A stretch of DNA of 64,000 nt from Caldisericia bacterium (GTDB lineage: Bacteria; Caldisericota; Caldisericia; B22-G15). The translations under genes were made by a program, and so were the position numbers. Below the pieces are notes generated by a model, which worked only from the letters and a program-made list of their open reading frames with translations, did not search any database and had not been told where the DNA came from. Location: NCBI GenBank assembly GCA_030018355.1, contig JASEFN010000003.1:83939-147938 (forward strand), read 5' to 3'. This document shows positions 5,026-64,000 of the stretch, piece by piece; position 1 is the first letter of the stretch; every line of letters starts with the position of its first letter.

Positions 5026-5030
5026 AAGAA

Positions 5031-6349: not shown

Positions 6350-6419
6350 TAAAATAACATCTTGAAATAAAAATTCAATTTTTGTTAAAATAATAAAAAT
6401 AATTTTTTGGAGTTATTTT

Positions 6420-7082
6420 GTGTTTAAAAAATTTAATGGATTTACAATAATAGAACTTATTGTTGTTATTACAATTCTTTCGATAATTTCAATGGGTATA
6501 ATTTATCTTTCTCCAACTCTTATTGCTACTCAAAAATTAAGAAATGATGCATGGCAACTTGTTAATGATTTAAGAGAGGTTCAGGTAAGAGCAATGGCAC
6601 AACTTGAAAAGTTAAAAATCAATTTTTATGTTTATAATCCAAGTACACCAGAATTAAATAATATTTATGTATTTGAATTAAGAGAAGGTGCAATTCAAAA
6701 TGCATATAATGTGGGAAAAGATATTGTTTATATTATTAATCATCCAGGCGAGTTTCCAAATATTGTTGTAAGAAAATTTAGCAAAAATATAGGTTTTCCA
6801 TACTCATTTGGATATACTCAGGGAATTACAACAGACGATGGTTTAGGTAGTGCAAATTCTGTTGTTTTTGGAACTCAATCATCTCCAATCTCTTATTTTG
6901 TTTCATTTTCTTTCAATGAATGGGGAAATCCATCTCAAGGAGGTCATATAAATTTAATTTCTAATAATTTACTTGGAAAAACAAAAGATTCAAAAGGCAA
7001 CAGATTACCAAAAGTTATAACAATTTACATAACACCAGCAACTGGTCGCATAAGATTTGTTGGACCTCGTGATTGGAATTAA
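6420..7082 (+). CDS. Prepilin-type pilin (GTG start).
   Basis: NGFTIIELIVVITILS N-terminus. It resembles the protein encoded at 5031-5555, especially in the N-terminal segment (LRNDAWQLVNDLREVQ vs LKNNAWQVLNDIKEVQ). Confidence 0.7.
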   Translation: MFKKFNGFTIIELIVVITILSIISMGIIYLSPTLIATQKLRNDAWQLVNDLREVQVRAMAQLEKLKINFYVYNPSTPELNNIYVFELREGAIQNAYNVGKDIVYIINHPGEFPNIVVRKFSKNIGFPYSFGYTQGITTDDGLGSANSVVFGTQSSPISYFVSFSFNEWGNPSQGGHINLISNNLLGKTKDSKGNRLPKVITIYITPATGRIRFVGPRDWN

Positions 7083-7266: not shown

Positions 7267-7299
7267 ATGTTAAAATTGTGTCTGACACTTTTGTAACAT
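7267..7299. repeat. Palindromic repeat copy B.
   Basis: ATGTTAAAATTGTGTCTGACACTTTTGTAACAT. Confidence 0.75.
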
Positions 7300-7300
7300 G

Positions 7301-7333
7301 ATGTTAAAATCGTGTCTGACACTATTGTAACAT
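7301..7333. repeat. Palindromic repeat copy C, in tandem with copy B.
   Basis: ATGTTAAAATCGTGTCTGACACTATTGTAACAT. Confidence 0.75.
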
Positions 7334-7334
7334 G

Positions 7335-10742: not shown

Positions 10743-10767
10743 AAATTTCTCCTTTTGCCTGGTCTTC

Positions 10768-10920
10768 CCTTTGTTCACAGGTTACCCTGTGTTTTTGAGG
10801 AAGACCTCAAAGGACGGCAACATCCTTGAGGGCATCCGCCGAATGGTTCGATTTTACCCCTTTTAAATAAGGGGAACCCTCTTCCTCGTCACCCAGATTT
10901 TTATATCTGGGCCAGGCGCT
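10768..10920 (-). ncRNA. glmS ribozyme: glmS ribozyme (GlcN6P-dependent self-cleaving riboswitch).
   Basis: Minus-strand RNA reads ...A|GCGCCUGGCCCAGAU..AUCUGGGUGACGAGGAAGAGGGUUCC...AUCGAACCAUUCGGCGGAUGCCCUC...GUGAACAAAGGGAAGACC. This matches the conserved glmS ribozyme core seen in Bacillus: AGCGCC cleavage site, UGACGAGGA, UCGAA..UUCGGCGGAUGCC, GAACAAAG.GAA. Confidence 0.85.
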
Positions 10921-12196
10921 TTTTTAAAAAGTTTTCTAAGGAGAGTGCTATCTCCTTAATCTCTTCCTCTTTTTCACCTTCCACCATAATTCTAATTAAA
11001 TTTTCTGTTCCTGATGGTCTTACCAAAACCCTTCCTTTTCCATTTAATCTTTCATTCCATATCATCACCTCCTTTTTAAATTCTTCGTCATTCATAACTA
11101 AATTTTTATTTGAAACTTCTACATTTCTTAAAATTTGAGGATATCTTATAAATTCTTTTTTCAATTCAGAAAGTGGCTTGTTTTCATTTAAAATAACTCT
11201 CAAAAGTAAAAGTGAAGTTATTATTCCATCTCCAGTTTTACTTTGTGGGAGAAAAATTATGTGACCAGATTGTTCTCCACCAATTGGAGCATTTACTTCA
11301 AGCATTTTATAAAGAACATTTCTATCACCAACTGGAGTTTCATAATATTTTATCTTATATTTTTCAAGAAGAATTTTTAACCCAAAATTACTCATTACTG
11401 TTATTACAATGCTATCTAATTTTAGGTATTTAACGAGAATAAACATTATTATATCTCCATCTACAACTTCTCCCTTATCATCAACTGCAATAACTCTATC
11501 TCCATCTCCGTCAAAAGAAAATCCTATATCAAAGTTACTCTCTTTCTTTTTTTGAACAAGAAAATTAATATTTGTAGAGCCACAATTTACATTTATTTTA
11601 TTTCCATCTGGAATTTCATTATAAAGAATGAGATCTGCATTAAGTGATGAGAAAATAATTGGAGCAACAACCGTTGTTGAGCCATAAGCAAGATCCAAAG
11701 CAATTTTCATTCCTTTTAAATTTAATTTATTATTTTTTATAACCTCACTAATATATTGATGTTTACCTAAAAGAAATTCAAAATTTTTTCCGAAATTTTT
11801 ACTTAATTTAATTTCACTATCAATTAATTTTTCTATCTCTTCTTCCTCATCTTCTGAAAGTTTAATTCCACTTCTGTTGAAAAATTTTATTCCATTATAC
11901 TCAATTGGGTTGTGAGATGCAGAGATCATTCCTCCCCCACTTTTTCCATTTATTTTAAGAAGAAGAGAGAGTGCTGGTGTTGGAAGAATTCCAGTTGAAT
12001 AAACATTAACACCAGTAGATAAAATTCCTGAAATTAAAGCAGCCTCAAGTGAATCAGATGATAAACGAGGGTCTTTTGAAACAATTAAATCTCCTTTAAA
12101 AAATAATCCTGCTGCTTTGCCTACTTTTAAAGCAAAATCTGGTGTTAGATCTTCATTTGCAATGCCTCTTATACCATCAGTCCCAAAGTATTTCAT
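10901..12196 (-). CDS. glmM: Phosphoglucosamine mutase.
   Basis: ISASHNPIEYNGIKF phosphoserine-loop motif and the FGTDGIRG N-terminus. Confidence 0.9.
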   Translation of the reverse strand: MKYFGTDGIRGIANEDLTPDFALKVGKAAGLFFKGDLIVSKDPRLSSDSLEAALISGILSTGVNVYSTGILPTPALSLLLKINGKSGGGMISASHNPIEYNGIKFFNRSGIKLSEDEEEEIEKLIDSEIKLSKNFGKNFEFLLGKHQYISEVIKNNKLNLKGMKIALDLAYGSTTVVAPIIFSSLNADLILYNEIPDGNKINVNCGSTNINFLVQKKKESNFDIGFSFDGDGDRVIAVDDKGEVVDGDIIMFILVKYLKLDSIVITVMSNFGLKILLEKYKIKYYETPVGDRNVLYKMLEVNAPIGGEQSGHIIFLPQSKTGDGIITSLLLLRVILNENKPLSELKKEFIRYPQILRNVEVSNKNLVMNDEEFKKEVMIWNERLNGKGRVLVRPSGTENLIRIMVEGEKEEEIKEIALSLENFLKKRLAQI

Positions 12197-20957: not shown

Positions 20958-22265
20958 ATGAATTTAGATCCATTATCATTGCCAATTGCCTTACCTGAGG
21001 GTGTAGATTATGATGATTATCTTGTGGCAACATATCTTGCAATTTTTCCAAAAGAGATACCAGTGAGAAAACTTGCACCTGCTCTTGCAATTGAGCAAAG
21101 TACAGGAACATGGGTTCCTGTTCCAGGCGAGACCCCAGAAGTTAAAAGAAAACATATTGCAAAAGTTATTGGAGTTTATGAAATTCCAGATTATGAATTT
21201 GAAATTCCAAAAGAAGTAACAATGAGAAATTACATAATTCAAATTGCTTTCCCTGAAATAAACATTGGAGAGCAAATTCCAATGCTTCTTACCACTATTG
21301 TTGGTAACATATCTATGGGTGGGAGAATTAAACTTCTTGATATCCGATTTCCAGAAAAATTTGTTAAAGGATTTAAAGGTCCAAAATTTGGAATTGAAGG
21401 TATAAGAAAATTACTCAATATTCCAAAAAGGCCCCTTTTAAATAATATGATAAAACCATGCACAGGATATACAGTTGATGTTGGTGCTGAACTATTTAGA
21501 TTAGCAGCATTAGGAGGATGTGATATTGTAAAAGACGATGAACTAATTGCAGATGCAAGTTTTAATAGAATTGAAGAGAGAGTAAAAAGATATATGCAGA
21601 TTGAAAAAGAAGTTTATGAAATTAAAGGGGAGCATACATTATATACTGTTAATATTACTGATTCAGTACCAAAAATTTTTGAAAATGCAAAAAGAGCAAT
21701 AGATGCAGGTGCGAATGCTTTAATGATAAACTATCTTGCAGTTGGTTTTGCAGTTTTTCAAGCAATAGCAGAAGATCCAGAAATTCAGGTTCCAATTCTT
21801 GCTCATATGGATGTTGCTGGTGCTCTATATATGTCTCCTGATTTTGGAATAACATCTCATCTTGTTTTAGGCAAATTAATAAGACTTGCTGGAGCAGATA
21901 TTGTTGTTATTCCTGCACCTTATGGAAAAGCACAAGTTTTACCTGAAAAATTTATAAACAATGCAAACAATTTGAGACTTCCATTTTATCACATAAAGCC
22001 CACATTTCCTATGGCTTCTGGTGGAATAACACCATCAATGGTTCCAAAAGTTATCGAAGATTTAGGTCTTGATATTGTTATTGGTTCAGGTGGTGGAATT
22101 CATGCTCATCCTGAAGGACCAATAGCAGGAGGAAAAGCATTTAGGCAAGCAATTGAAGCAACAATGAGGGGAATTCCTTTAAAAGAAGCAGCAAAAGAGT
22201 ATAGAGAACTCGCAATTGCTCTTGAAAAATGGGAAGATCCATTTGGAAAGGGTCTTGGTATATAA
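20958..22265 (+). CDS. RuBisCO-like protein (form IV RLP), not a carboxylase.
   Basis: GGCDIVKDDE (vs RuBisCO GGLDFTKDDE) and a VIGSGGGIHAHP glycine loop. The H-R pair of the LHIHRAMHA motif is replaced by ILAHMDVAGA, so the R295 equivalent is missing, typical of RLPs. Confidence 0.8.
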   Translation: MNLDPLSLPIALPEGVDYDDYLVATYLAIFPKEIPVRKLAPALAIEQSTGTWVPVPGETPEVKRKHIAKVIGVYEIPDYEFEIPKEVTMRNYIIQIAFPEINIGEQIPMLLTTIVGNISMGGRIKLLDIRFPEKFVKGFKGPKFGIEGIRKLLNIPKRPLLNNMIKPCTGYTVDVGAELFRLAALGGCDIVKDDELIADASFNRIEERVKRYMQIEKEVYEIKGEHTLYTVNITDSVPKIFENAKRAIDAGANALMINYLAVGFAVFQAIAEDPEIQVPILAHMDVAGALYMSPDFGITSHLVLGKLIRLAGADIVVIPAPYGKAQVLPEKFINNANNLRLPFYHIKPTFPMASGGITPSMVPKVIEDLGLDIVIGSGGGIHAHPEGPIAGGKAFRQAIEATMRGIPLKEAAKEYRELAIALEKWEDPFGKGLGI

Positions 22266-42131: not shown

Positions 42132-42563
42132 TTAACCTCCTTTATTAGTTGTTTTTACTCTCTCTTCACTCTTAAAATCTTTAATTAATTTTTTCCATTT
42201 AGGATCATTTACACCAACAACACATTTGTTTTTTTCTCTTAAAGAGACTCTCAATTTTAATAAAAATATGTTTTTTTTGATATAATCTTCAGGAATAGAT
42301 AAGATTGTGTGAAAAAGATTTTCTAAAAATGGATCAAGATTTTCATTTATTGAATATTTAACTAATCTTCCCGATCTTTCTTCAATTACTAAATTTATAC
42401 TTTTAAGTTCTTGTAAATATTTTGAAACATTATAATGCGTTTCTTCTAAAGCATCTGCAATTTCACATACATAAAAACCTTGCTTCTCTTTTAATAATAG
42501 CATTAATAATTTTAATCTCTTTTCAGATGACAAAACTTTGAAAATTTTTGTGTATTTATACAT
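42132..42563 (-). CDS. ArsR/SmtB-family transcriptional regulator.
   Basis: Winged HTH: LKLLMLLLKEKQGFYVCEIADALEETHYNVSKYLQELK. Confidence 0.65.
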   Translation of the reverse strand: MYKYTKIFKVLSSEKRLKLLMLLLKEKQGFYVCEIADALEETHYNVSKYLQELKSINLVIEERSGRLVKYSINENLDPFLENLFHTILSIPEDYIKKNIFLLKLRVSLREKNKCVVGVNDPKWKKLIKDFKSEERVKTTNKGG

Positions 42564-50234: not shown

Positions 50235-52169
50235 ATGAATGAAAAAGATAAACCACGAAGTAGTAAGAACGGAAAGGTAACAAAAAAAGAACTTTTTGGA
50301 AAAATAGAGAGTTTAGATGAGTATATAAAAAGTCATACAAGCAAAGTTAAAATGTCTCCTTTTCTTTTATCAAGTGATATTGAAGAAAAGGAGATAAGAG
50401 ATCTAATTAAAAAAGAGATTGATTATTTAATAGAAATTTTAAAACCAAAAGAAAATGATAGAATTCTTGATCTTATATCAAGCCACGGAGAATACTCATT
50501 AGAACTTGCAAGAAGAGGATTTATAAATGTAGAAGGGCTTGATAGATCAAGTAACTTAATTCAAAAATCAAAACTTAGAGCAAAAAAAGAGAACTTACCT
50601 GTTAAGTTTAGAGAAGGGACTCCAAGAAAACTTTTTTATCCACCTAATAGTTTTGATGTTGTTTTGCTAATTGGTAATGTCTTTGGTTTTTTTGAGACAC
50701 CACTTGATGCTTTTAATGTTTTAAAAGAGATCTTTAGAGTGTTAAAAAAGGGTGGAAAAATATTTATAGATATAATAGATAGTGAATATGAAAAGAAAAA
50801 CATTGTTCCATATTACTGGCAGTGGCTGGATAAAAATCATTATGTTTTAAGAGAAAATAAATTATCTTTAAATGAAGATAGTTTAATAATTAGAGAGATT
50901 GTGAGTCATATTCAAAAAGGAGTAATAAAAGATAGTTTCTTTTCATTGAGATTATATACAAAAGATGAAATTCTAAATCTACTTAAAAGAGCAGGTTTTT
51001 CTGATATTCAAATATTTGATCACTCAATTGATATAAATATTCCAATATCAAATTTCCAAATTGGAGAAAAACATATCTCTTTTGTTGCTACAGTATATAA
51101 AGAAATAAAAGAAGAAGTAAAAGTTAAAAAAGTTTTAAGAAATGTTTGTGTTATATTGGGTGATCCAAAGAAAAGTGATCCACTTAAACCAAATCACATT
51201 TTTGATGAGGATGATTTAAGAGCAATAGAAAAGTTAAAAGAAACTTTAAAAACATTTAAAAATTATAAATTCATCTATTTAGATAATCATGATCATCTTG
51301 CTGAAGAACTAATGGGGTTAAAAGGTAAAGTGGATTATGTTTTAAATTTATGTGATGAAGGTTATTTTAATGATCCTACAAAAGAGATGCATATTCCTGC
51401 AATTCTAGATGTTTTAAATATTCCATATACTGGTGCAACTCCACAATCACTTGCACATGCATATGATAAATCTCTTGTAAGAGGAATTGCAAGAGAAATG
51501 GGTATTCCTGTCCCAGATGCTTTTCTTGTAAAGCCAGGTGAAAATGTTTATGAATTACCAATAAATTTTCCTATTATAGTTAAACCTAATTTTGGGGATT
51601 CAAGTTTTGGTATAACTCAAAAAAATGTCTGTTTTGATTATGAAAGTTTAATAAAAGTTATAAGAGATCTAAGAGATCTTTTTGGTTATGAAAAACCAAT
51701 ACTTATTGAAGAATTTTTAACAGGTAAGGAATTAAGTTTAGGAATAATTGGTAATCCACCAAGATATCCATTTAAACTTTTACCTCTTGCTGAACTTGAT
51801 TACTCATCTTTACCTGAAGATTTGCCTAAGATATGTGGTTATGAAGCAAAGTGGTTACCTAATTCTCCTTATGGGAAAATAAAATTTATTAAAGCAACAG
51901 TTTCTGAAGAAGTTGAAAGAGATTTAATTGATTGGAGTATTAGACTCTTTGAAAGATTAGAATGCAGAGATTATGCAAGATTTGATTTTAGATTAAATTC
52001 AAGTGGATTTCCAAAACTTCTAGAGGTAAATCCAAATCCAGGATGGCACTATGATGGTTTTTTAGCAGAGATTGCAAGAATTCAAAATATTGATTATAAA
52101 ACACTTCTTGAATTAATATTAAAATCAACTGAAATTAGATTGGGATTAATACCAGCAGAAGAGTTTTAA
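50235..52169 (+). CDS. Fusion protein: N-terminal class I SAM-dependent methyltransferase and C-terminal ATP-grasp ligase (D-Ala-D-Ala ligase-like).
   Basis: The N-terminal half has an MTase fold (ILDLISSHGEYSLELARRGF...VVLLIGNVFGFF). The C-terminal half has DHLAEELMGLKGKVDYVLNL (pre-ATP-grasp) and IVKPNFGDSSFGIT...EEFLTGKELSLGIIGN (ATP-grasp). Confidence 0.65.
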   Translation: MNEKDKPRSSKNGKVTKKELFGKIESLDEYIKSHTSKVKMSPFLLSSDIEEKEIRDLIKKEIDYLIEILKPKENDRILDLISSHGEYSLELARRGFINVEGLDRSSNLIQKSKLRAKKENLPVKFREGTPRKLFYPPNSFDVVLLIGNVFGFFETPLDAFNVLKEIFRVLKKGGKIFIDIIDSEYEKKNIVPYYWQWLDKNHYVLRENKLSLNEDSLIIREIVSHIQKGVIKDSFFSLRLYTKDEILNLLKRAGFSDIQIFDHSIDINIPISNFQIGEKHISFVATVYKEIKEEVKVKKVLRNVCVILGDPKKSDPLKPNHIFDEDDLRAIEKLKETLKTFKNYKFIYLDNHDHLAEELMGLKGKVDYVLNLCDEGYFNDPTKEMHIPAILDVLNIPYTGATPQSLAHAYDKSLVRGIAREMGIPVPDAFLVKPGENVYELPINFPIIVKPNFGDSSFGITQKNVCFDYESLIKVIRDLRDLFGYEKPILIEEFLTGKELSLGIIGNPPRYPFKLLPLAELDYSSLPEDLPKICGYEAKWLPNSPYGKIKFIKATVSEEVERDLIDWSIRLFERLECRDYARFDFRLNSSGFPKLLEVNPNPGWHYDGFLAEIARIQNIDYKTLLELILKSTEIRLGLIPAEEF

Positions 52170-53431
52170 TGAAAGAGGTTGTATTAAAATTAGATAAATT
52201 TGATCTTAATGGTGGTACTTTTGGTTTTTACGATAATAAAAAAGTTTTAGTTTATGGAGCACTTCCAGGAGAAGTTGTAAAAGTAAAAATTTATGGAAAG
52301 AAAAAAGATTATTTTCTTGGTGAGATTTTAGAGATAATTCAAAAATCTGATGAAAGAATAAAAGAAAAAGAGGATCATTTTATATCTTGTTCACCATGGC
52401 AAATTCTTAAAGAAGAGAGAGAAAATTTTTATAAAAAGGAGTTAATTTTAGATTTAATAAAAGAGAATAATTTAGATATTAAAGATTTCGATATAAAAGA
52501 TAAAAATATTTTTTATAAATATAGAAATAAACTTGAATTCAGTTTTTTAGATGAAGAATTAGAATTTGCCTTTTTTAAAAGAGGAACACATAAAAAGAAA
52601 GTTAAAATAGATGGATGTATTTTAGGCTATGATTCAATAAATTATGTTGCAAAGGAAATTTTAAATCAATTAAAAGAAAAGAATATACCACCTAAAATTT
52701 TAAAAAGTTTAATTTTAAGAGGAAATAGAGAGAAAGAAGTTATTGCTTCTCTTTTCATAAAAGAGAAGGTGAAAATTTTGGAAAATCCTTTAAATATTCA
52801 AAATCTTAAAGGATTTTCTTTATTTTATTCATCACCACTTTCTCCTGCATCTATTAAAACTGAGACTCTTTTTGAAAATGGTGAAAATTTTTTAAAAGAA
52901 AAAATCCTTAATAAAACTTTTTTCTTCACAACAACTTCTTTTTTTCAAGTAAATATTGATATGTTTGAAGAAGCACTTTTAGATATAAAGAATTTTGTTG
53001 ATGTAAATGATAATATATACGATATTTATAGTGGAGTTGGAACAATAGGAATTGCTCTTGATTTGAAAAATGTAAATTTTATTGAGAGCGAAAAAGAAAA
53101 TATCTTCCTTAAGAAAATGAATCTTGAAATTAATGGGATAAGAAATTTTAGATTAATTGAAAATAGAGCAGAAAATGTAATATCAACTATAGAAAGAAAT
53201 TCGGTTTTAATTTTAGACCCTCCAAGAGAGGGTCTTCATAAAAAGATATTGGAAGAATCAATAAAAAAAGATTTTAAAAGAATTATATACCTTTCATGCA
53301 ATCCAAAAACTCAACTTAGAGATTTATCTTTTCTAAAAGAAAGATATAATTTAAAATTTTTTAAAGGTTATAACTTTTTTCCCAGAACTCCGCATATAGA
53401 AACTTTGTCTATTCTTGATAGAAAAATTTAG
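52169..53431 (+). CDS. TrmA/RlmD-family RNA (uracil-5)-methyltransferase with an N-terminal TRAM-like domain.
   Basis: The C-terminal LDPPREG and SCNP motifs are typical of the m5U methyltransferase family. Confidence 0.7.
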   Translation: MKEVVLKLDKFDLNGGTFGFYDNKKVLVYGALPGEVVKVKIYGKKKDYFLGEILEIIQKSDERIKEKEDHFISCSPWQILKEERENFYKKELILDLIKENNLDIKDFDIKDKNIFYKYRNKLEFSFLDEELEFAFFKRGTHKKKVKIDGCILGYDSINYVAKEILNQLKEKNIPPKILKSLILRGNREKEVIASLFIKEKVKILENPLNIQNLKGFSLFYSSPLSPASIKTETLFENGENFLKEKILNKTFFFTTTSFFQVNIDMFEEALLDIKNFVDVNDNIYDIYSGVGTIGIALDLKNVNFIESEKENIFLKKMNLEINGIRNFRLIENRAENVISTIERNSVLILDPPREGLHKKILEESIKKDFKRIIYLSCNPKTQLRDLSFLKERYNLKFFKGYNFFPRTPHIETLSILDRKI

Positions 53432-53841
53432 TTATTCTCCTCTCTATGTTCCTTTTTTATAAGATTCCAATGATAAATATAAACTGGAATTCCAACAATT
53501 AACATAGCTATATTTCTTGTAAATGAATCTACAAGATATGGAAAATAACCAAGATGTTTTGATGTTTCTTTGTATCTTTTATATTCTTCCTCCCATTGAA
53601 GAAGGGCTTTCTTTTGTTCTTCTGTTAATTCAATTTTTTCAACGGCTTCATTTAATTTTACACTTTCAAGCCAATAAGGAATTGGTGGTAAATAAGATCC
53701 ATATCTTGCCTCAAGGGCATCTCTAAAGAATGTTAATTGTAAACCAAGATTTATTAATCCAACTGATCCAATGATAATTAAAGTTAATCCAACCATAGAG
53801 AAAAGGTATAAATAAATTTTTCTTAAAGTAAACTTACTCAT
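53428..53841 (-). CDS. Hypothetical membrane protein.
   Basis: N-terminal TM segment. No recognisable domain. Confidence 0.4.
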   Translation of the reverse strand: MSKFTLRKIYLYLFSMVGLTLIIIGSVGLINLGLQLTFFRDALEARYGSYLPPIPYWLESVKLNEAVEKIELTEEQKKALLQWEEEYKRYKETSKHLGYFPYLVDSFTRNIAMLIVGIPVYIYHWNLIKKEHREENN

Positions 53842-53930
53842 AAAACCTCCTTTTTAGTTTTTAATAATATAAACCAATAATATCAGAAAAAGTTTCAAAA
53901 TTGTATAAAATTATAAAAAGGAGGAAGAAG

Positions 53931-54503
53931 ATGGAAAAAGAATTAAAAGAGTACAATGGAATTAAACTTTCAAGTTTGAGTGAATTTAGAGAAAATTCAA
54001 TTAAAGGTCCACAGAGTGTGGATATTAAAAATTATACACTTGAAATTTATGAAGAAGGAATTTTTAAGAAAGCGTATAGATATGAAGAAGTAATAAACAA
54101 TTTTAAAGCGACAAAAAAGATAATAACGCTTTATTGTGTTGAAGGATGGGATACAACGATTTTATATGAGGGAATAAATCTTATTGATATATTAAATGAT
54201 TCAAATGTTTCTTTTAAGTATCCTGTGATAATTTTTGGTGCAGTAGATGGTTATACAACTTCACTTGAAACCTCTTTTGTTTTAAATAGCAAATTAATAA
54301 TTGCATACAAAATGAATGGGATAACTATACCAAAAGAAAACGGATTCCCATTTGTTTTAATTGGAGAGAATAAATGGGGGTATAAATGGATTAAGTGGTT
54401 AAATAGAATAGAATTATCTAATGATAAAGATTATAGAGGATATTGGGAATCGAGAGGTTATTCAAATTCAGCAAATCTTAATGAACCATTTTTTGAAAGA
54501 TAA
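53931..54503 (+). CDS. Molybdopterin-binding oxidoreductase-like domain protein (sulfite-oxidase/MsrP-fold fragment-sized).
   Basis: ITLYCVEGWDTTI resembles the Oxidored_molyb CVEGWS motif. Start placed at the MEKELKEY ATG preceded by AAAGGAGG. Confidence 0.45.
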   Translation: MEKELKEYNGIKLSSLSEFRENSIKGPQSVDIKNYTLEIYEEGIFKKAYRYEEVINNFKATKKIITLYCVEGWDTTILYEGINLIDILNDSNVSFKYPVIIFGAVDGYTTSLETSFVLNSKLIIAYKMNGITIPKENGFPFVLIGENKWGYKWIKWLNRIELSNDKDYRGYWESRGYSNSANLNEPFFER

Positions 54504-56810
54504 CCCTTTGAGTGATGTTTCAAAATTTTTTCTGGTATATTTATAACCCCATTCTTTACAAGATAAAAAATAAAAATATAAACTCTTTCTCCATTGCTTT
54601 TCTTTGCTTTCTTTACTTTTAATAACCCTACAATATTCCAAATGATAAACACCCTCCATACTATACACTTTCCAATAATTCACTTTTAACAGATATATGA
54701 CTTTCGTTCACACATTTTACATTACTAAAAACTTGTTCTATACAAATATTAGCTACTTAACAAATTTTTTTGTATTTTTGAGCCTTCTCTTTTGCTTTAA
54801 GCCTTTTAGAAGATTTAACTTTTTGCCATACAATGTCATTTGTATGCAAATTGGTTTAAAGCCAAGTTTCTCCAACTTTTCAAGTAATATACCTGACTGC
54901 TCATTTAAAAGTTTACCTTCATTATTGTGCTGATTTAAGTTTTACACCGAATATCCACAACCTGTTATCTTGTCGATAAACTAAAACAATCGGTTTGATA
55001 TTAACTTTTATCTCTTTCCCTTGTTTACTCCAAAAATAATATGTGATGTATTATACTATAAGCTTTCTATTAACTAAAACATAAGTATATAAGTATTTTT
55101 TATTTTTCTAAACCTATCCCTTTTTCTGTTAGATATTGGAATAGTCCATGTGGTCTTGCTTCTAAAAATAGTTGAATACAAAAAAATTATTCTTAATGAA
55201 GGAAATTTTAATTTCCTAATAGTTCCTTATCTCTACCAAAAAAGTTTTCTATAACTTGCTTGATGTGGTATTTTAAGAAACAAGAGAGTAATTATGTATT
55301 ATAGGAAGTTTTTTCTGCAGAATTCCTCTATAAGCTTAAATATTTGTTGTGCTTTTAAAGTTGAAAAATATGTATTTTGAATTTTTTTTATAATTTTTCA
55401 GAGTTATTATAATAACCAATATTTTGAAATTTTGTATAGATGCTATTTTCGAAGGTCAAGGATATTTTTGAAACACTTAAGTTTTAAGATTTACGCTGAG
55501 AAAGCCAATCCTTTTGGTCTGTGATGAAAGGTGGTATATATAATGAAAGTCTAATAATAAAGATCAAGTTTGGGTCTTAGATAAACTTCTAAAAACGGAC
55601 CACTTGTAGGTAATTGCCTATGAAACGGAAAATTTTATTGAAAGAGGAAAAGTTCATCTCTTAAGATGTTAGGGAAGTTACTTTATACATTAATAATATG
55701 CTCTTTTAATTTCAGTTAATAAAATTTTAAACATTATATAACCTCTTCTATTTTTTAAAAAAGATCAATTTCTTTGTTTTATTTGAATATTTTTTATAAA
55801 TGTTCAAGATTTGTAATTCTAAATATATAAAATCAGAATCGCTTTTAATTTTTGAAACACATATAAGACTTTCAAACTTAAAAATATCTATAATATTTTA
55901 TATATTTCTTTTAAGTTCGTTTTTTTATATTTGCTATTAAGATAACAGGATAACCTAATTTACGCTTTAACTATTTCTCCTTTCAAAGAACTGATTTTTC
56001 CTTTAAAGTAATTACCTTTAATATTTTTAACAATCAATGTAATTAATAAAAAATATTTGTCAATATTCTACGTAGTAATGTACTCACCTTTGAAAAAAGT
56101 AGAGAAAGTTTATGTTTTGCTTTTTTTAGAATTTTCTTTCAACTATTAAATAATTTTCCCATTTTTTATAACAAAATATACTTCTATCCTATTTCTAGTT
56201 CTTTTTCTGAAATAGTATTTATATAATTTGATGTTATTCTGTGAGAGTATTTGATTAAATATTATTTCACCTTTATCAGCTTCTAGAAAATAAAGTAAAC
56301 TTGCATTTTTTAAAAATAAAAAACTAGCCAATAAAAGTAATTAAAATTTTTTATTTTGTATTCTTTGAGTTCCTTTATCTGTTATATTGTAAGATTGTCA
56401 ATCTCTGTTTTTAATAAAAATTACTCTGTTATTACAAAAATTTGTAAACTTTACATTTCATATAGTTTATATAAAACTTGCACATTTCAAATCTTCACAG
56501 ATACTATTCAAACTTCTCGTAAAATAAAACTAAAAATTAACAAGATTCAAATACTACAATAAAATAAATTTTTTATTAAAAATAAAATTTCTAAATATTA
56601 ACACATACTTCAATTTTTACATCAATTTACCTGATAAAATGTCTTAATAAGGATAAATCATGATTTACCTATATAATTTTTCAATCATAAATAAATTATT
56701 AAAAAATTTTTGTAAAAATCTCTTTTCGTTAATTTTGGAAATGTAATAAGAAATATAAATCCATTTTGAAAAACTTAACAAACTACTGTACTATTGACAC
56801 ATTTTTACCC

Positions 56811-57671
56811 CTAAATCTTAAATATTCCATATCCTAACGATGTTTTCGCTCCAATACCAAACTTTTCTAATGCTTCCTTTAATAACACTTCTGACTTTTG
56901 GAGTAAAGAATTGTCCTGTGAAATTAAATAGAATCGAAAAGTTGTTTTCTCAACAGTCAAAAATTCTACAGGTTTTGGATTTTGCCAATCTGCCGGAGGT
57001 TGCTTTCCAGAATAATAATCAGGATAATGGGGGTTCATTATATCAATCTTCAAATTTATATCACTTACCGGATAAGCATCTATAAAATATACCTTCCCTT
57101 GATGCTTTTGAGTGCCGAAGATTTTAATCAACTCTCCAAATTTTATATTACCAATTTCCAAATCCAACTCGTTTCCTTTTTCAAGATCACTCGAAATTTG
57201 CTCCACAGCATCTTCAAAACTTTTATTATCTTTATTCATCTTCTGTTCTGCAAACTTCAACACCGCCCAATGCTTTGTTACTCCTTTGACCGCACTTCCC
57301 GGAATATACGGAATCCCATAAATATGATGCAAAGTCATCGATGTTTCCTGGGGATGTACTCCTCCAAGCCCAATTATAAGATGCCAAGGACATATGCTTT
57401 GAAAATTCTTAACATTAAAACCATTATTTTTTAAAAGATTAATCAAATTTTCTCTTCTCTTCTGAATGTTTTCTAAAAAATTTCTTTCCCATTTGAATTT
57501 CTCAATTTCCTTATTAATCACTATCCTTTCAGGCAAGATCTCCCCAAGAACAATTGGTGAGTTAAATAGAAAATAAAAATTATTATCAGGTCCAATGCTT
57601 TGAGCTGAAAGTATACTAAAGGTATCTCGAGGAAAATACTTATTTTTTGATACATGAAACCTAATACTCAT
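56811..57671 (-). CDS. cmr6: Type III-B CRISPR RAMP protein Cmr6.
   Basis: GLGGVHPQETSMTLHHIYGIPYIPGSAVKG, the Cmr6 G-rich loop / PYIPGSS(L/V)KG signature. Confidence 0.85.
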   Translation of the reverse strand: MSIRFHVSKNKYFPRDTFSILSAQSIGPDNNFYFLFNSPIVLGEILPERIVINKEIEKFKWERNFLENIQKRRENLINLLKNNGFNVKNFQSICPWHLIIGLGGVHPQETSMTLHHIYGIPYIPGSAVKGVTKHWAVLKFAEQKMNKDNKSFEDAVEQISSDLEKGNELDLEIGNIKFGELIKIFGTQKHQGKVYFIDAYPVSDINLKIDIMNPHYPDYYSGKQPPADWQNPKPVEFLTVEKTTFRFYLISQDNSLLQKSEVLLKEALEKFGIGAKTSLGYGIFKI

Positions 57672-58096
57672 TCTTCACTCTCCTCCTCTGTTTCAATCAA
57701 ACCCTCTGCAAACCTCTTCACCCAATTTAAAAATGCAAGTATCTCCTCTGTGACATATCGATAATTTTGAGAATCAAGCGAAATAACCCATTCTACTAAC
57801 TCAATGTTATCTGGCATCTTTATTCTTGCTGTTGAATCACTTCTAAGATAATCCATCATTTGCGAATATAAAAGTTCATAAGCATTTCCATTTTTTGCTT
57901 TCGACTTAACAAATGCAAGGGTTTGCCCAAGTCCATTGGAAAGAATCATCTGAGGAATTTTTCTTGAGTAAGCACGGTAATTCTTGAGTAATTCTTTATT
58001 AGAAGAATTTTCATCAACCACTTCCTTTACACACCTATACGCAAACTCTGCTCTCCCCTTTTCAAGTTTTGTAATTAAACTCTCTCTATCAGGCAT
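57668..58096 (-). CDS. cmr5: Type III-B small subunit Cmr5.
   Basis: 142 aa and alpha-helical, positioned between cmr4 and cmr6. Confidence 0.7.
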   Translation of the reverse strand: MPDRESLITKLEKGRAEFAYRCVKEVVDENSSNKELLKNYRAYSRKIPQMILSNGLGQTLAFVKSKAKNGNAYELLYSQMMDYLRSDSTARIKMPDNIELVEWVISLDSQNYRYVTEEILAFLNWVKRFAEGLIETEEESEE

Positions 58097-58118
58097 AACT
58101 AACCTCCTTTGTTAATTT

Positions 58119-59105
58119 TCAAAGGATTTTTAACCTTACAAAACCCTTTCCAATTGTTTGATTGCCCCCTATCTGAACTATCTCTGGAAGCCCATCTTTA
58201 AAAAACTTAGCAACAAGTTCTGCCTCTTCCTGTGGAGTAACAGATTTAAATATCCCTTTTTGCTCATCACTTTTTACTTTTGGCTCTGTAAACATCACGA
58301 GAGAATATAAGATTGTATCTTGAGGCAAATATTCTTCTGTCCATAGCGCCCCTGACGCAACAGTGCCAGTTTTATCGTCAATTCTCGTCCTCGTAATTAC
58401 CTCAGTAGAGGTCTTTACAAATTGCTTAAAATCATCATCACTTAAAATAACAAGATCACTTTTTAACTTCTCCCTCCAATAGTTATAAGCATTATCACTA
58501 GGGAAAATTCGATTTGCGAACCATTCAGCAATTCCAGAGGTTATATCATTTTCGTTTACTTCAAAAGTGAATTCTTCAAGTATAATTTTTGACTCAATTG
58601 CAAGATTTGATTGTCTTGGTGTAGTGTTTTGAAGTGTGTAAAAGTTTCCAAAATTGCTAGAGTTTATACCAGCCATCTTGATTTCCTTACTAAATCTTTC
58701 AAGAACCATCGGACAAGTTATCCAAGCAAAAATACCCTTCAACGATTTAACAGGAAATAAAAGAATTCTCGCATCCGTAAAAGTAATAGCGCTTGCATGC
58801 TCATCACTATCTTCTGGTCCAAAAACAAGTGATAAATAGTCTTTGTTAAGTTCTGTTTCAGCATTGTCTTTAATGTATTTTATTTTGTCTTTGGGTCTAA
58901 TTTTTTTAGCATTTAATTCAATTTCTTTATTCGCAATTCCAAACGCCTCTTTTATACAGCCCTTTAGTCCTGAAGCTTCAATCTTGGGAAAATCCGTATG
59001 CCTTTCCCTTTGAATGGGAAGATCCACAAGCCCCAATTCACTCCCACTTCCAGCATGAACAGGAGTTTCTGCAATTATGAACAATGACTGTACTTTTTTA
59101 AACAT
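58119..59105 (-). CDS. cmr4: Type III-B backbone RAMP Cmr4.
   Basis: N-terminal FIIAETPVHAGSGSELGLVDLPIQRE, the Cmr4 (Cas7-group) signature with the catalytic Asp region. Confidence 0.85.
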   Translation of the reverse strand: MFKKVQSLFIIAETPVHAGSGSELGLVDLPIQRERHTDFPKIEASGLKGCIKEAFGIANKEIELNAKKIRPKDKIKYIKDNAETELNKDYLSLVFGPEDSDEHASAITFTDARILLFPVKSLKGIFAWITCPMVLERFSKEIKMAGINSSNFGNFYTLQNTTPRQSNLAIESKIILEEFTFEVNENDITSGIAEWFANRIFPSDNAYNYWREKLKSDLVILSDDDFKQFVKTSTEVITRTRIDDKTGTVASGALWTEEYLPQDTILYSLVMFTEPKVKSDEQKGIFKSVTPQEEAELVAKFFKDGLPEIVQIGGNQTIGKGFVRLKIL

Positions 59106-60306
59106 GCCATCCCTCCTTTTGTATTTTATAAACTTTGTAGTTTTCTAAATCTTTTATCTTCGACAAGTTATTTTTAAAAGTTTCAACATACTCACTTTCA
59201 ACATTATGCACATCACTTCCTATGCTAATCGCTCCAGCATAAATATCATACTCCATGACACCATACCGAGTTTTTCTTTCCTTTACTTTATATAAAATCC
59301 TTACCTGTAAATTATTCTCCTTATGTTTAAAACATTTAAAGTCTTGTAAATCCACACCTTCCAATCTATGGTCTAAATCAGGATCCTGTAGGTTTTGCTC
59401 TATTCTTCGCTTAAGCTCTAATAAAGATTTTTCCGCTATGTTCTTAAAATTTTGGTCCTTGCCAATATACTCTTTAAATAATTTAGATACATAAAAAACT
59501 CTAAACCCTCGCTTATACTTTTCCCATAAAACTATCCCCAAGTTGTTTAGAGAATATAAGTTTTCAACCCTTTCCACTAGACTTAAAATATCTGCATAGT
59601 CTTCCTCATTAATACCCTTCAGTTCACTAACCCCATCCTTTTCCAATTTAGCAAAAAACTCTTCATATTCTTCGAATATCTCCCATTTAATATCTAATGG
59701 AATGTAAGGTATCTTTATTAAAGCATCAGTTTTTTCAAATATATAATAAACAGGACATTTATTCACCTGAGCAAGGATCGTAAGATACGGAATGGTCGCC
59801 TTGTATCCCCCAGTGATGTTAATAATCACATTATCCCAGTATTCATCCGCAATCCTATAAATCTCATTTATCAATTCACTCATACCAACATTAAACTCTT
59901 CTCTATCCTGAACCTGCAAACACTTAATAAATCTTGTGTAAATTTTTTTACTATCAAACCCTAAATCCTGAAGAATTTCTTCTATTAACTGACTCGCAAG
60001 CTTACTTAAAATTGTATCAGAATACAGAAGATAAACTTCAAAATCATCATCCCTTAACTCCTCTTTTAACTTTAAAAGGCTTTTCACTTCCGCCGATAGA
60101 GTCACTTTATTCTCATCTTTTCTTGAGTCAATCCATTCTTTAATTGCATCTCTAAGAGATTGAATCCTCCTCTTTTCTGAATCAAATTCCTCTGCCTTCT
60201 TTTCCTGTAGATCTTCAAAGTAACCTCTAGAAGTGTTATTTCTCTTTTCTTCCTCAAAATAATTCTCAAATATCGATGTCCCAACCATCGTAATTACCTT
60301 CTTCAT
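59098..60306 (-). CDS. CARF-domain protein embedded in the cmr operon, in the Csx1 positional slot, with an unrecognised C-terminal effector domain.
   Basis: The N-terminal beta-strand/loop VITMVGTSIFEN and the NITGGYKATIPYL motif fit the CARF family's [DN]-[IL]-T-[HG]-G-[FY]-[RK]. The C-terminal ~200 aa lacks any R-x4-6-H HEPN motif. Confidence 0.6.
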   Translation of the reverse strand: MKKVITMVGTSIFENYFEEEKRNNTSRGYFEDLQEKKAEEFDSEKRRIQSLRDAIKEWIDSRKDENKVTLSAEVKSLLKLKEELRDDDFEVYLLYSDTILSKLASQLIEEILQDLGFDSKKIYTRFIKCLQVQDREEFNVGMSELINEIYRIADEYWDNVIINITGGYKATIPYLTILAQVNKCPVYYIFEKTDALIKIPYIPLDIKWEIFEEYEEFFAKLEKDGVSELKGINEEDYADILSLVERVENLYSLNNLGIVLWEKYKRGFRVFYVSKLFKEYIGKDQNFKNIAEKSLLELKRRIEQNLQDPDLDHRLEGVDLQDFKCFKHKENNLQVRILYKVKERKTRYGVMEYDIYAGAISIGSDVHNVESEYVETFKNNLSKIKDLENYKVYKIQKEGWHV

Positions 60307-61406
60307 GATACACTCCCAATAAATGTTAAACCATAACCTTCCTCTGGATATATGTCCGAAATATTCTTAAAATGAAAAACATCCTTAACCTTTTGAACAT
60401 CAGAATCATCAAGTATCTGAAAATAATATACACTCCCCGCAGGAACTGCCCTTCGCATAGGTTTTGGCTTATTTTCCGCCATATCCCATCCTCCAATCAA
60501 TTTATATTTCCCAATTACGCAACCAACCAACTTCAATTTAATACCCTTATGCTCTCCTTGAAGCGTATTTTCATCAATCCAACTTGGAAGATAACCCTTT
60601 TCAAAAATTGCCGGTGTAGCAAGATAAATCTTAAATAACCTGTTGTTAAAACTTAAACTTATACCCTTAATCTCTTGAAGTAAATCACTTTCCATTTTTT
60701 CTATCTTCGCAGTTTTCCCTTCTCCGCCAAGCTGAATTATACCCGATTCAGGAACGTCTTCAACCCCCTCAATCCACACAGCAATCGCCACATCACCTTT
60801 CAATTTTTCATCTTTCAACCTTATCATTGGCACATGATAAAGATGCCCCTTTACTGTGGTTTTTGTTATACGGTTTCTTGCAATTCCAATCTTCGACTCC
60901 ACAATGTAAAGCTCATCTTTCTCTGTTAGTCTTAAACCTTTCTTCCCTAATAAATAATCACTCAAATAAATAGCAGTAATATAACCTTCAGCTTCTTTTA
61001 TATGCTCCATACCTTTCCAAACCAAAATCCCATCCATTTGATAATCTGAAATAAATATGTCAGGCCTCTCAGAAAAAGTTAAAGACTTTAAAATATCATT
61101 TCTCTTGTTTTCTTTCTTCTTCAGTAAATCCAACGGCGAAGGAAATAATAATTCCCCTTTTAACAGAATTGAACCTTTAATTTTTAGGGAGCCTTTTGTT
61201 TCAGTCGTTCCTAATTCTTCTTTGAACCTCCCTTCTTTGAAATCTTTCAAACTTCCCTTTTCAAATATTAGCCATGTCCTTATCGCACCATACAATGTTG
61301 TAGGATTTGGTGGAAAAATTATCTCTGTCCAAGACTCCGCACCCATTGTGAAAGGTATTCCACTTCTGAAAAATAAAGTATCATTTGGTATAATCTTATA
61401 CCACAT
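60303..61406 (-). CDS. cmr3: Type III-B Cmr3.
   Basis: N-terminal IIPNDTLFFRSGIPF matches the Cmr3 DxLFFRxGRPF motif. 367 aa. Confidence 0.85.
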   Translation of the reverse strand: MWYKIIPNDTLFFRSGIPFTMGAESWTEIIFPPNPTTLYGAIRTWLIFEKGSLKDFKEGRFKEELGTTETKGSLKIKGSILLKGELLFPSPLDLLKKKENKRNDILKSLTFSERPDIFISDYQMDGILVWKGMEHIKEAEGYITAIYLSDYLLGKKGLRLTEKDELYIVESKIGIARNRITKTTVKGHLYHVPMIRLKDEKLKGDVAIAVWIEGVEDVPESGIIQLGGEGKTAKIEKMESDLLQEIKGISLSFNNRLFKIYLATPAIFEKGYLPSWIDENTLQGEHKGIKLKLVGCVIGKYKLIGGWDMAENKPKPMRRAVPAGSVYYFQILDDSDVQKVKDVFHFKNISDIYPEEGYGLTFIGSVS

Positions 61407-61407
61407 A

Positions 61408-63978
61408 CTACTCTCTCTTATTTAAAAAACTCACAATTTCAAGTAAGTTGGTAAAGTTGTCTAAATCTCCACCAGATTTCCAGAAAAGCTTTTGAATATT
61501 TGTGTAAAAGTCATCAATAAGCTCTTTTCTCTTATTTTTCTCATCCTTTCCGCTTCCTTTATAATTGTAAGCACGAGAAATCAATCTATAAAGTTCACCA
61601 TTGAATACATCCTCAGATGACACCAAGCGCCCATCCTTGTCCTTTAATCTCAAAAATTCCCTTTTTAACTTCTGGATAAATCCATGAGAAATATGCCTTT
61701 CATTCTCATCATCCATTGCATTCTTCGCCCTTTTTATCACATCAATAGTTTGTAGCACATCATTGGTTGTGCTATCCTTGTATATCCACTTGTACATTAC
61801 TATCCTTTCTTCTCCTGACTTCTTTATCAGAAGAATTGAAAAGGAATCTTTACTTGTATTTGATTTCACCATCTTCTCCATCTGGAAAACTTTACCTATC
61901 ACCATTTTTAATGGCTCCTTATAATGTGCAATTACAACCCCCATAGATGCAGTTGCCTTTTTCCCCATCGTAAGGTAATAAACTCCATCTTTTTCCACAA
62001 AACCCGTTTGATTTTCTCCAGATACTTTTATTTGGCCATCTTCAACTCTTGTCTCTCCAGAAAAAGCAAACCTTAACTTCTCCATAACATCAAGTAAATC
62101 TCTTAAATTAACAAAAGCTAACACATCATCTCCGCCAGTATATATGAGTTTCCCAAGATGCTCCTCCTCAACAATTTTCTTCACAAACTCTATGGAGTAA
62201 TTCCTTAAAGCATTTGAAATAGAAGCATGTATTGCTGGCGTTAAAAGCTTCTTTGAAGATTTAACCTTTAACTGCTCCTTAAAATCTTCCGGTAACTTTC
62301 TCCACACCTCAGAATTATAAGTGTTCTCAATCTTCGGAAGAAGCTCACCCGAAAGCCACTTCCCCATGTTGTCTCCATCAAGATAAATTAAAGCATAATA
62401 AGGATTTGGCTTTCCTACTTTTTCAGATAATTGTTTAAGACATTCTTTAATTTGCTTTATCTGCTCATCAGTTAAATCAACATCGAATTCTTCTTTTATT
62501 GACTCCTTTTCTAAATTCTCCTCAAAAAACAATTCACCTTCCACAGTTTTCTGTATTACATCCTTCAACTTTGGTATAGAAGATACAATAGAAAGTTTAC
62601 TGCTCAGTGAATTTTTAAGTAAGTTTTCATATTCTTCAAACTTTTCTCTAGCTTCCTTCAACGCTTTCTTCTTAAAATCTGCTACGGTAACTTCTGCTGT
62701 TGATGGAAATGTCAAATCTTCAAAGCTTCTATCAACTTTTTCTTCAAGATAAAGTTTAAATGTTCTTTTAATGAAGCATAACCCACATAAGCCTTCACCG
62801 CTAGAAAAATACTTATGTTCTACCCTATCAGTTAAATCTATTGCTTCTGGATTGTATTTTGTAAATTTTTTCTTATTCTCTTTTTCCCAGAAAAATAAAA
62901 CATTTCTCTCCCCACAGAGAGAACATTTACGTCCCGTTTCCTCAACTTGCTTAAATTTTCTTAAATTTTTTCTTGCACCCATCCATTTCTCAAGCACAGT
63001 ATAAAGAAGCTGATAAAGTAGACCAATATTTGGAGAATATTCTTCTTTATTCTTTGCAAAATTCCAAAGCTCCTTCCATGCTTTTAATTCACCATCATAG
63101 AAGAAATTTTTAAAGTCATCAACCTCTATATCAGCCTCGCCTTTTCTCCACGGAACTGCAACCCAGTATACCTGTGGAAAATCCACAAGCTGTTTCACTA
63201 TCGCATCTTTTATTTCTTCTGCCTTTAAACTTAACTTTTGCAAAATTACATCCAGAATATTTGATAACTCCTCAAAAATTTTCTCTTTCGCTCTCTCAGC
63301 CAATTGTTTAATTTTTTCTGTCTCAGATTCAGGAATTATCGCAACGAATCTATTTGGGATTGTTGGAATACTAACAAAATCTGAATTTGATTTCTCGACT
63401 CGAATTCCTTTCTCCCTCTCAAGAAACCAATCCATAAGAGGTTGATTGAAAAGATCTGGGTATATAATCGATGTCGGACCATACTCGTTTATTATCACCT
63501 TCATCCCAATGAAGGTTAAATACGAAAGAAGAAAACTCCCAATATAAAGATCTTGTGCTTTCCTTGCCTGTGAAATAAAAGATTGAACAGGACCAATAGT
63601 GAAAAGAAATAACGAATTATTTTGAATTAATTTATCATCATACAAGTATGCATTAACTGCAGATGAAACCTTCAAATGTTCCCATATTGAGTGATCTGGT
63701 ACCCTCGTATCCGCCGGGAAAAGTGGTATATACTTGCACCATGGTCTATTACGGGATCTCTCAATAAGTTTTATAAGTAAATTTCTCCAGATATAAAGAA
63801 ATTTGCGTTCATCATCGTAACTGCTTATTTCTCTTCCAATCTCTTTAAAAACCTCACTAACAACCGAGAAAACCTCAGATGAATTAATATTCGAAATATC
63901 CATCTTCCCCTCACTTAAAGGATGCCTGATTTCATTAAAATCCTGTGAAATCCCAGCTGGAAGCAAACTTCGCTCCAT
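61408..63978 (-). CDS. cmr2: Cas10/Cmr2 large subunit (HD nuclease + Palm/cyclase).
   Basis: HD motif ADTRVPDHSIWEH near the N-terminus. Treble-clef Cys cluster CSLCGERN...CGLC. GGDD cyclase motif IYTGGDDVLAF. An alternative start ATG lies about 25 codons downstream of the track start. The gene lies 22 nt from the window edge. Confidence 0.9.
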   Translation of the reverse strand: MERSLLPAGISQDFNEIRHPLSEGKMDISNINSSEVFSVVSEVFKEIGREISSYDDERKFLYIWRNLLIKLIERSRNRPWCKYIPLFPADTRVPDHSIWEHLKVSSAVNAYLYDDKLIQNNSLFLFTIGPVQSFISQARKAQDLYIGSFLLSYLTFIGMKVIINEYGPTSIIYPDLFNQPLMDWFLEREKGIRVEKSNSDFVSIPTIPNRFVAIIPESETEKIKQLAERAKEKIFEELSNILDVILQKLSLKAEEIKDAIVKQLVDFPQVYWVAVPWRKGEADIEVDDFKNFFYDGELKAWKELWNFAKNKEEYSPNIGLLYQLLYTVLEKWMGARKNLRKFKQVEETGRKCSLCGERNVLFFWEKENKKKFTKYNPEAIDLTDRVEHKYFSSGEGLCGLCFIKRTFKLYLEEKVDRSFEDLTFPSTAEVTVADFKKKALKEAREKFEEYENLLKNSLSSKLSIVSSIPKLKDVIQKTVEGELFFEENLEKESIKEEFDVDLTDEQIKQIKECLKQLSEKVGKPNPYYALIYLDGDNMGKWLSGELLPKIENTYNSEVWRKLPEDFKEQLKVKSSKKLLTPAIHASISNALRNYSIEFVKKIVEEEHLGKLIYTGGDDVLAFVNLRDLLDVMEKLRFAFSGETRVEDGQIKVSGENQTGFVEKDGVYYLTMGKKATASMGVVIAHYKEPLKMVIGKVFQMEKMVKSNTSKDSFSILLIKKSGEERIVMYKWIYKDSTTNDVLQTIDVIKRAKNAMDDENERHISHGFIQKLKREFLRLKDKDGRLVSSEDVFNGELYRLISRAYNYKGSGKDEKNKRKELIDDFYTNIQKLFWKSGGDLDNFTNLLEIVSFLNKRE

Positions 63979-64000
63979 ACATGATGCGATGATATCAGGC

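Follow-up and report, generated by a model that had tools for sequence, protein, structure and literature searches.

In type III-B CRISPR systems, the Cmr operon of Pyrococcus furiosus has the gene order cmr1-cmr2-cmr3-csx1-cmr4-cmr5-cmr6. Effector-only ('orphan') type III loci, which rely on co-resident arrays and Cas6, are common. Cami1, the third commonest known type III effector, is activated by cyclic tetra-adenylate (cA4), cleaves mRNA in a ribosome-dependent manner and is active as a ring nuclease (PMC11229360, PMC12409355). The structure of the Allochromatium vinosum Cami1, a CARF-RelE protein, is available as PDB 8PHB/8PHJ (Mogila et al. 2023, cited in PMC11229360). A combined type I-B/type III locus is known from Candidatus Kryptonium thompsonii (Eloe-Fadrosh et al. 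2016, PMC4737851). Here, we analyzed a 64,000-nt stretch of a Caldisericia bacterium (GenBank assembly GCA_030018355.1, contig JASEFN010000003.1, positions 83,939 to 147,938 of the forward strand; hereafter the window), near the end of which lies a Cmr operon with an embedded Cami1-family gene. The locus is of kinds that are already known: an effector-only type III locus, a Cami1 gene and a Cmr operon into which a CARF effector gene is embedded. Our data suggest that it is probably an imported island of ~11.2 kb from a Kryptonia-like lineage, which kept the leader and one decayed repeat of an array and lost the array itself.

The locus shares with the P. furiosus-type III-B operon the same seven-gene order, including the CARF effector gene between cmr3 and cmr4. 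Its Cas10 has HD and GGDD motifs and is homologous in sequence to solved Cmr2 structures, among them that of P. furiosus. The embedded effector, in contrast, is a CARF-RelE protein (Cami1) here and a CARF-HEPN protein (Csx1) in P. furiosus, and no cas6 or array adjoins the operon here. Like orphan type III loci in general, it lacks an adaptation module, cas6 and an array, but here the loss can be traced through a leader, a repeat, an insertion site and empty sister sites. In the Ca. Kryptonium thompsonii locus (contigs L008-L012), the orthologous operon has an identical gene order and a conserved cmr1 promoter region and leader. In this species and its allies, arrays with the repeat GTTTGAATCGAACCTGTGAGGGATTGAAAC lie on either side of the operon; type I-B cas genes follow as well in L011. 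Both arrays and the I-B genes are missing here, and the genomic contexts of the two loci are unrelated. The type III part of the Kryptonium locus was labelled III-A (PMC4737851), although its genes fit Cmr (III-B) models.

Looking up the exact Cmr3 sequence gave four metagenome contigs, each 100% identical to the window where they overlap it. Contig L003 (Logan SRR23186779) is 100% identical to window positions 50303-64000 (13,698 nt) and runs 7,406 nt past 64000; extended coordinates past 64000 are read from this contig. The island reaches from window position 54512 to ~1.73 kb past the window end, and the operon region makes up its larger part. Its breakpoints were placed by alignment with two Caldisericia genomes, GCA_026414995.1 (L013) and GCA_017880035.1 (L014), in which gene order is kept on both sides; synteny stops at 54511 and resumes at extended position 65733. 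At the empty sites, the Oxidored_molyb gene is followed by ~70 nt and then by rplY-pth-mfd. An 11-nt direct repeat brackets the island (Table 1), whereas TAACCTTTGA is present once at both empty sites. The insertion point is located between the stop codon of the molybdopterin-oxidoreductase-like gene and the -35 region of the rplY promoter. A search for terminal inverted repeats at the island ends gave only an unconvincing internal 11-nt match. The sequence duplicated by the insertion (54501-54511; extended 65729-65745) holds a TTGACA -35-like hexamer of the rplY promoter. Since the right-hand copy keeps the rplY promoter context, expression of rplY-pth-mfd is probably undisturbed.

Composition and relatives also set the operon apart from its host. 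The guanine-cytosine (GC) content of the operon is 0.34, compared with 0.284 ± 0.023 in 54 windows outside it. Taken against its immediate surroundings, the operon has a GC content of 0.342 versus 0.26 in both flanks, while the Kryptonium operon, at 0.369, lies among its own flanks (0.364-0.372). At third codon positions (GC3), the cmr genes have values of 0.27-0.31 and the host genes 0.134 ± 0.017, with a maximum of 0.168. The best named matches of the host GlmS are from Caldisericia (78-88% identical), and a protein from a Caldisericia metagenome-assembled genome (MAG) matches the neighbouring methyltransferase with 100% identity. Host genes have no close Kryptonium matches, whereas the operon DNA is 85.6% identical to that of Ca. 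Kryptonium over 7.4 kb. Protein identity to Kryptonium is 85% for Cmr1, 79% for Cas10, 86% for Cmr3, 90% for Cami1, 81% for Cmr4, 54% for Cmr5 and 67% for Cmr6. Cmr5 has 142 aa here and 204 aa in Kryptonium (cmr5 and cmr6 were compared with L009 12199-13745), and the cmr5 of L002, a Thermodesulfobacterium MAG, is closer (74% identity). The low identity of Cmr5 and Cmr6 suggests a recombinant, mosaic operon. An earlier sequence-only reading of the window had judged by eye that the operon is GC-richer than its neighbours and perhaps horizontally acquired. Computed windowed GC and GC3 are indeed both higher, and horizontal acquisition is strongly supported: the island is present or absent at a conserved site that is empty in two sister genomes, differs in composition, has its relatives in another phylum and is bounded by direct repeats.

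The same reading described the 2.3 kb downstream of the operon as free of CRISPR repeats. We found there a leader homologue and two solitary repeat-like elements, named R1 and R2. In Ca. Kryptonium, the leader sits between cmr6 and the downstream array, and at the orthologous position the window still has a leader with a single repeat. This repeat, R1, lines up exactly with the leader-proximal repeat of L009 and L012, and its 23/30 identity to the Kryptonium repeat was reached by 1-2 of 500 shuffles, anywhere in the 64 kb. R2 belongs to another family. Its score against Rfam CRISPR-DR14 is 41.3 bits, below the gathering score of 45, with 24 of 29 positions identical to the consensus; the E-value is 0.003 when 2.5 kb are searched and 0.0003 for a stretch of 221 nt, and none of 500 shuffles matched it. 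The two elements, a 30-mer and a 29-mer of different families, are each single-copy and lie 6 nt apart. No explanation fits this adjacency well; possibly two collapsed arrays were fused, or a spacer captured a foreign repeat. No array in the sense of at least two repeats with similar-length spacers is formed at 56449-56513.

Further copies were sought and none stood above chance, neither of R1 or the Kryptonium repeat in the 2-kb gap nor of R2, and nothing in the window matches GTTTGACCTCATCAAAAAGGGATTGCGAC, the L002 repeat. The window contains no CRISPR array by TRF or by a periodic k-mer scan, which readily detected the arrays of related loci, and PADLOC found no cas6, cas1 or cas2 among the 53 other open reading frames (ORFs) of the window. 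These searches bear out the earlier statement that array, cas6 and adaptation genes are absent from the window. Beyond R2, the remaining 1.94 kb downstream of the operon (54512-56448) is absent from relatives; it contains no ORF of at least 100 aa, no Pfam match in its 10 longest stop-to-stop frames and no Rfam family. A tblastn search of the noncoding parts of the island, with every ORF from L001, from L002 and from the Kryptonium loci as queries, including cas6, cas1, cas2, cas4, cas3, cas5, cas7 and a ring-nuclease-like CARF gene, found no remnant beyond chance.

Table 1. Coordinates of the Cmr-Cami1 operon, the elements downstream of it and the island ends
Feature	Position	Strand	Evidence or remark
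cmr6, 286 aa	56811-57671	-	TIGR01898 E 8e-58; PADLOC Cmr6 E 9e-61
cmr5, 142 aa	57668-58096	-	TIGR01881 E 1e-27; PF09701 E 5e-35
cmr4, 328 aa, backbone RAMP	58119-59105	-	TIGR02580 E 1e-73
cami1-family CARF gene (Cas_APE2256), 402 aa; assigned as CARF7 + wHTH + RelE-fold	59098-60306	-	PF09651 E 8e-28
cmr3, 367 aa	60303-61406	-	PF09700 E 6e-63; TIGR01888 E 2e-42
cas10/cmr2, 864 of 909 codons inside window	61408-64000, cut by window end	-	TIGR02577 E 2e-81; PF12469; PF22335
cmr1, 353-aa RAMP	extended 64134-65195, outside window		upstream of cas10; PADLOC Cmr1 E 3e-33
Leader homologue, 297 nt	56514-56810	-	~70% identity to Ca. Kryptonium leader, collinear with cmr6
R1, decayed Kryptonium-type repeat, GTTTGAATAGTATCTGTGAAGATTTGAAAT (operon strand)	56484-56513	-	23/30 identical to Kryptonium repeat
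R2, CRISPR-repeat-like, second family, GTTTTATATAAACTATATGAAATGTAAAG (operon strand)	56449-56477	-	Rfam CRISPR-DR14
AT-rich island segment, 1.94 kb, GC 0.24	54512-56448		no recognisable genes by ORF, Pfam, tblastn and Rfam scans
Left 11-nt direct repeat, TAACCCTTTGA	54501-54511		overlaps TAA stop of host Oxidored_molyb gene
Right 11-nt direct repeat, TAACCCTTTGA	extended 65729-65739		second island junction

Judged by its genes, the region is a canonical type III-B (Cmr) effector module with a Cami1 helper gene. The full module has seven genes in the order cmr1-cas10-cmr3-cami1-cmr4-cmr5-cmr6, each named by curated models. The sequence-only reading had given the minus-strand order from cas10 to cmr6 and the III-B label correctly: the six ORFs in the window are named by NCBIfam and Pfam, and the NCBIfam, Pfam and PADLOC models agree on the type. 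Cmr3, Cmr4, Cmr5 and Cmr6 are all intact and over the curated cut-offs of these three collections. From a reading of the sequence, Cmr4 keeps the VDLP Asp near its N-terminus. In Cas10/Cmr2, NCBIfam and Pfam models identify Cmr2_N and two palm domains, and PDB Cmr2 homologues were matched. The GGDD cyclase motif, IYTGGDDVLAF, spans 62125-62136; Zn-finger cysteines lie at 62773-62925.

From the ATG at 63978 onward, the cas10 frame stays open as far as the window edge, and therefore cas10 runs off the window. A start at 63978, which would give a protein of 856 aa, was considered and rejected: the 856-aa form has no exact match, and in L003 the full gene encodes 909 aa, with this ATG as internal Met54. 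The N-terminus in L003, MSNFGEKLKAFLHDPVDK, carries the HD motif LKAFLHDPVDK (H13-D14), and the motif and the start codon are located 97-137 nt beyond 64000. The motif is common to the relatives L001 and L002, found by a contig scan with Cas10 at 65-69% identity, and aligns with FFHDPPDK of a solved homologue. The window-visible part of Cas10 contains no HD dipeptide. The earlier claim that Cas10 retains both motifs is therefore correct for GGDD and, in the full gene, for HD, but the latter motif lies outside the window and could not have been read there. It is plausible from these motifs that both Cas10 activities, HD DNase and GGDD cyclic oligoadenylate synthesis, are active. In L003, cmr1 overlaps the cas10 start by 4 nt. 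Upstream of cmr1 follows a 610-nt spacer without repeats, and the next 6 kb are occupied by opposite-strand genes, namely rplY, pth, mfd and one for a large protease. That cmr1 seemed to be absent and that the cas10 start was misplaced are both effects of the window edge.

We assign the gene between cmr3 and cmr4 to the known Cami1 family, with the architecture CARF7-winged helix-turn-helix (wHTH)-RelE, on the basis of profile matches and a structural model. The 402-aa protein matches the PADLOC model CARF7--CARF_RelE end to end (E 1.7e-122). With phmmer, its sole PDB matches are 8PHB/8PHJ (E 5.5e-10, residues 67-268). An AlphaFold model built with 43 homologues has a predicted local distance difference test (pLDDT) score of 88, and in a Foldseek search with the whole model 8PHJ/8PHB come first (E 9e-16, ~420-430 aligned columns), followed by the CARF+wHTH ring nucleases Sis0811 and SSO1393. 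The N-terminal CARF domain is of the CARF7/APE2256 type according to PF09651, the PADLOC CARF7 models and the structural matches. The C-terminus has a RelE/ParE-superfamily fold; when its 135 residues were modelled alone (pLDDT 89), Foldseek returned nothing, and their sequence profile matched no PDB sequence. Like the A. vinosum Cami1, the protein has ~400 aa with CARF7, wHTH and RelE parts, and that protein is the best structural match for both the whole protein and the C-terminal domain. Sequence identity between the two is 17-20%, and sequence search aligns only residues 67-268. Invariant across the 43 homologues are S11 and K169 in the CARF domain and K327, R336, H367 and Y373 in the RelE-like domain. 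By their spacing, the latter four may correspond to the catalytic residues of RelE. The CARF label of the sequence-only reading can be sharpened to Cami1.

These features suggest how the imported module would work. The recipient is a low-GC Caldisericia bacterium, and the nearest known relative, the Cmr module of Ca. Kryptonium thompsonii, is from a different phylum. What was transferred or retained would comprise the promoter and the seven genes, together with the downstream array's leader and first repeat, but no array, cas6 or adaptation genes. By analogy with the families involved, the Cmr complex loaded with CRISPR RNA (crRNA) would bind complementary transcripts, and Cmr4 would cut the RNA. 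The HD domain of Cas10 may cut DNA, while its GGDD palm domains are predicted to make cA4. Binding of cA4 to the CARF domain of Cami1 would then allow the RelE-fold to cleave ribosome-bound mRNA, arresting translation. The CARF domain, with ring-nuclease-type Ser11 and Lys169, may degrade cA4 and so reset the system. With neither an array nor cas6 in the island, the module would work only with crRNA and Cas6 from another locus in the genome, or else lie idle.

The operon appears to have been maintained. dN/dS relative to Kryptonium is 0.11-0.31 for all seven genes, with dS 0.28-0.9, and the synonymous third-position differences favor A/T in this copy (262 versus 141 in reverse). Both observations fit purifying selection during residence in an AT-rich host, along with partial amelioration. 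L003 carries intact versions of all seven ORFs, and those fully covered by L005 and L006 are intact too; in these two, the contig end truncates cmr1, and in L006 also cmr6. In relatives, some Cmr genes are split into two ORFs each: cas10 in Ca. Kryptonium thompsonii GCA_001536145.1 (L011 5799-8544), cmr4 in L008 (11202-12175) and cmr1 in L002 (8810-9866). These splits are either sequencing errors or frequent natural inactivation.

Several observations weigh against an imported and maintained module. No integrase or transposase was found in the island by ORF and Pfam searches. At dS 0.28-0.9, Kryptonium can be named only as the closest relative sampled, not as the donor, and the divergence from it is clearly greater for cmr5, cmr6 and the leader than for the remaining genes. 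In addition, dN/dS spans the whole divergence, including time in other hosts, and is therefore no proof of function at present. In contig L004 (JGI 3300045074; JGI, Joint Genome Institute), cmr1 is frameshifted by a 10-nt deletion, TAAGGTAATT, at position 952 (L003 7078-7087), ~320 nt past the window end and between short GTAAT repeats. This deletion, which is either a population variant or an assembly artefact, splits the gene into ORFs of 302 and 48 aa; L003 and L005 are intact. Over 57 kb to one side and 7.4 kb to the other, neither an array nor cas6 is present. Scans of JGI metagenomes, in a collection that includes two samples carrying this locus, gave no match to arrays built from R1 or from R2, a weak negative because arrays assemble poorly and exact matches were required. 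The empty scans and the frameshift in one population would also be expected if the island were a stranded, non-functional remnant that lost its array, never had cas6 or a compatible crRNA supply and is now decaying in its Cmr genes. Such decay would agree with the reduction of the array to a leader and one decayed repeat, with the lower identity of leader and repeat to Kryptonium (70-77%, versus 85.6% for the genes) and with 1.9 kb of featureless AT-rich DNA inside the island. However, the ORFs intact in L003, L005 and L006, the catalytic motifs that are kept and a dN/dS of 0.11-0.31 despite synonymous AT-amelioration, which points to time spent in an AT-rich host under constraint, argue against it, and it is common for effector-only type III loci to draw on arrays in trans. 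We regard a stranded remnant as unlikely, though it deserves serious consideration, and favor an imported island that has spent time under selection.

The remaining explanations are harder to reconcile with the data. The sequence-only reading had allowed that cmr1 and the array lie just beyond position 64000, and the array with cmr1 upstream of cas10 would have made this an ordinary complete locus, as might be expected from L002 and L008-L012, where arrays and/or cas6 adjoin the operon. Inspection past 64000 found cmr1 directly beyond the window as supposed, but no array or cas6: in L003 the repeat-free spacer leads into rplY, pth and mfd, where host synteny resumes, and a complete locus is refuted for 7.4 kb beyond the window. 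We give this explanation virtually no credence. Each of the two alternatives of that reading, this one and a distant array and cas6 used in trans, is half right, and any crRNA would have to be supplied from a distance. Hardly less improbable is an ancestral operon of this Caldisericia lineage that both relatives lost by deletion; in its favor, the comparison covered only two relatives, with 68-76% identity for the neighbouring methyltransferase. GC3 of the operon is twice that of every host gene measured, its closest relatives are in another phylum while host genes have no close Kryptonium matches, there is one copy of the 11-nt sequence at the empty sites but two copies flank the island, and two independent precise deletions would be required. 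It is also very improbable that the leader, R1 and R2 form an expressed mini-gene for a crRNA-like RNA that guides or regulates Cmr, by analogy with CreA and degenerate mini-arrays. The leader is kept beside the repeats in the orientation of operon transcription, and two repeats of different families 6 nt apart are odd, but there is no repeat-spacer-repeat unit and no cas6 for processing, and the leader and R1 are less conserved than the genes. A CreTA-like self-target search with the sequence after R2 found no meaningful complementarity in 71 kb, only AT-rich chance matches. Somewhat less remote, though still quite improbable, is that the island is a self-contained transferable effector cassette, made of promoter, Cmr, Cami1, leader and repeat between short direct repeats, which moves between phyla and uses the array and Cas6 of the recipient; the leader and solitary repeats might then be a recombination or docking site or encode a crRNA-like regulatory RNA. 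If true, this would point to a distinct way in which type III systems spread and not to mere decay. Partial import from a Kryptonia-like lineage with loss of the array thus remains our preferred account.

In the rest of the window, Pfam searches on 20 of the 53 other ORFs found only ordinary housekeeping domains such as ABC ATPases. A PADLOC 'Csa3' match is most likely an ArsR-type wHTH protein (42132-42563), and PADLOC also gave 'mad' and 'AriA' matches among the 53 ORFs. A c-di-GMP-II (cyclic di-GMP) riboswitch at 601-688 (+; Rfam 42.6 bits, gathering score 40) lies directly upstream of a gene cluster at 738-7082 (+), whose products carry N-terminal prepilin methylation motifs and are type IV pilin/pseudopilin-like, suggesting c-di-GMP control of pilus genes. 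Inside this cluster, a HEPN (137 aa) and nucleotidyltransferase (116 aa) pair at 5589-6349 (+) forms a toxin-antitoxin module of the HEPN-MNT type. A 34-nt tandem duplication, ATGTTAAAATCGTGTCTGACACTATTGTAACATG, at 7267-7334 (2.0 copies, 94% identical) is intergenic beside a DUF4388 gene. A glmS ribozyme (10751-10931, -; 91 bits) lies upstream of glmS (8919-10778). Since the GTG start listed for this gene overlaps the ribozyme and homologues have 607 aa compared with 619 aa, the true start is probably 12 codons downstream. A RuBisCO large-subunit-like gene at 20958-22265 (+), beside an FGGY sugar kinase and an oligopeptide-type ABC transporter, probably encodes a form III or IV RuBisCO-like protein in this heterotroph-like Caldisericia genome.

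In this study, we compared a Cmr-Cami1 locus with its nearest relatives and with the empty sites of sister genomes. The locus leaves the understanding of how type III systems work unchanged. Its specific value is an unusually complete reconstruction of transfer and array loss. It would represent a clean, datable case of a type III-B effector module passing from one phylum to another, here between the hot-spring lineages of a Kryptonia-like source and Caldisericia. As such, it illustrates that partial transfer and collapse of the array can give rise to effector-only type III loci, and that Cami1 travels embedded in the Cmr operon.

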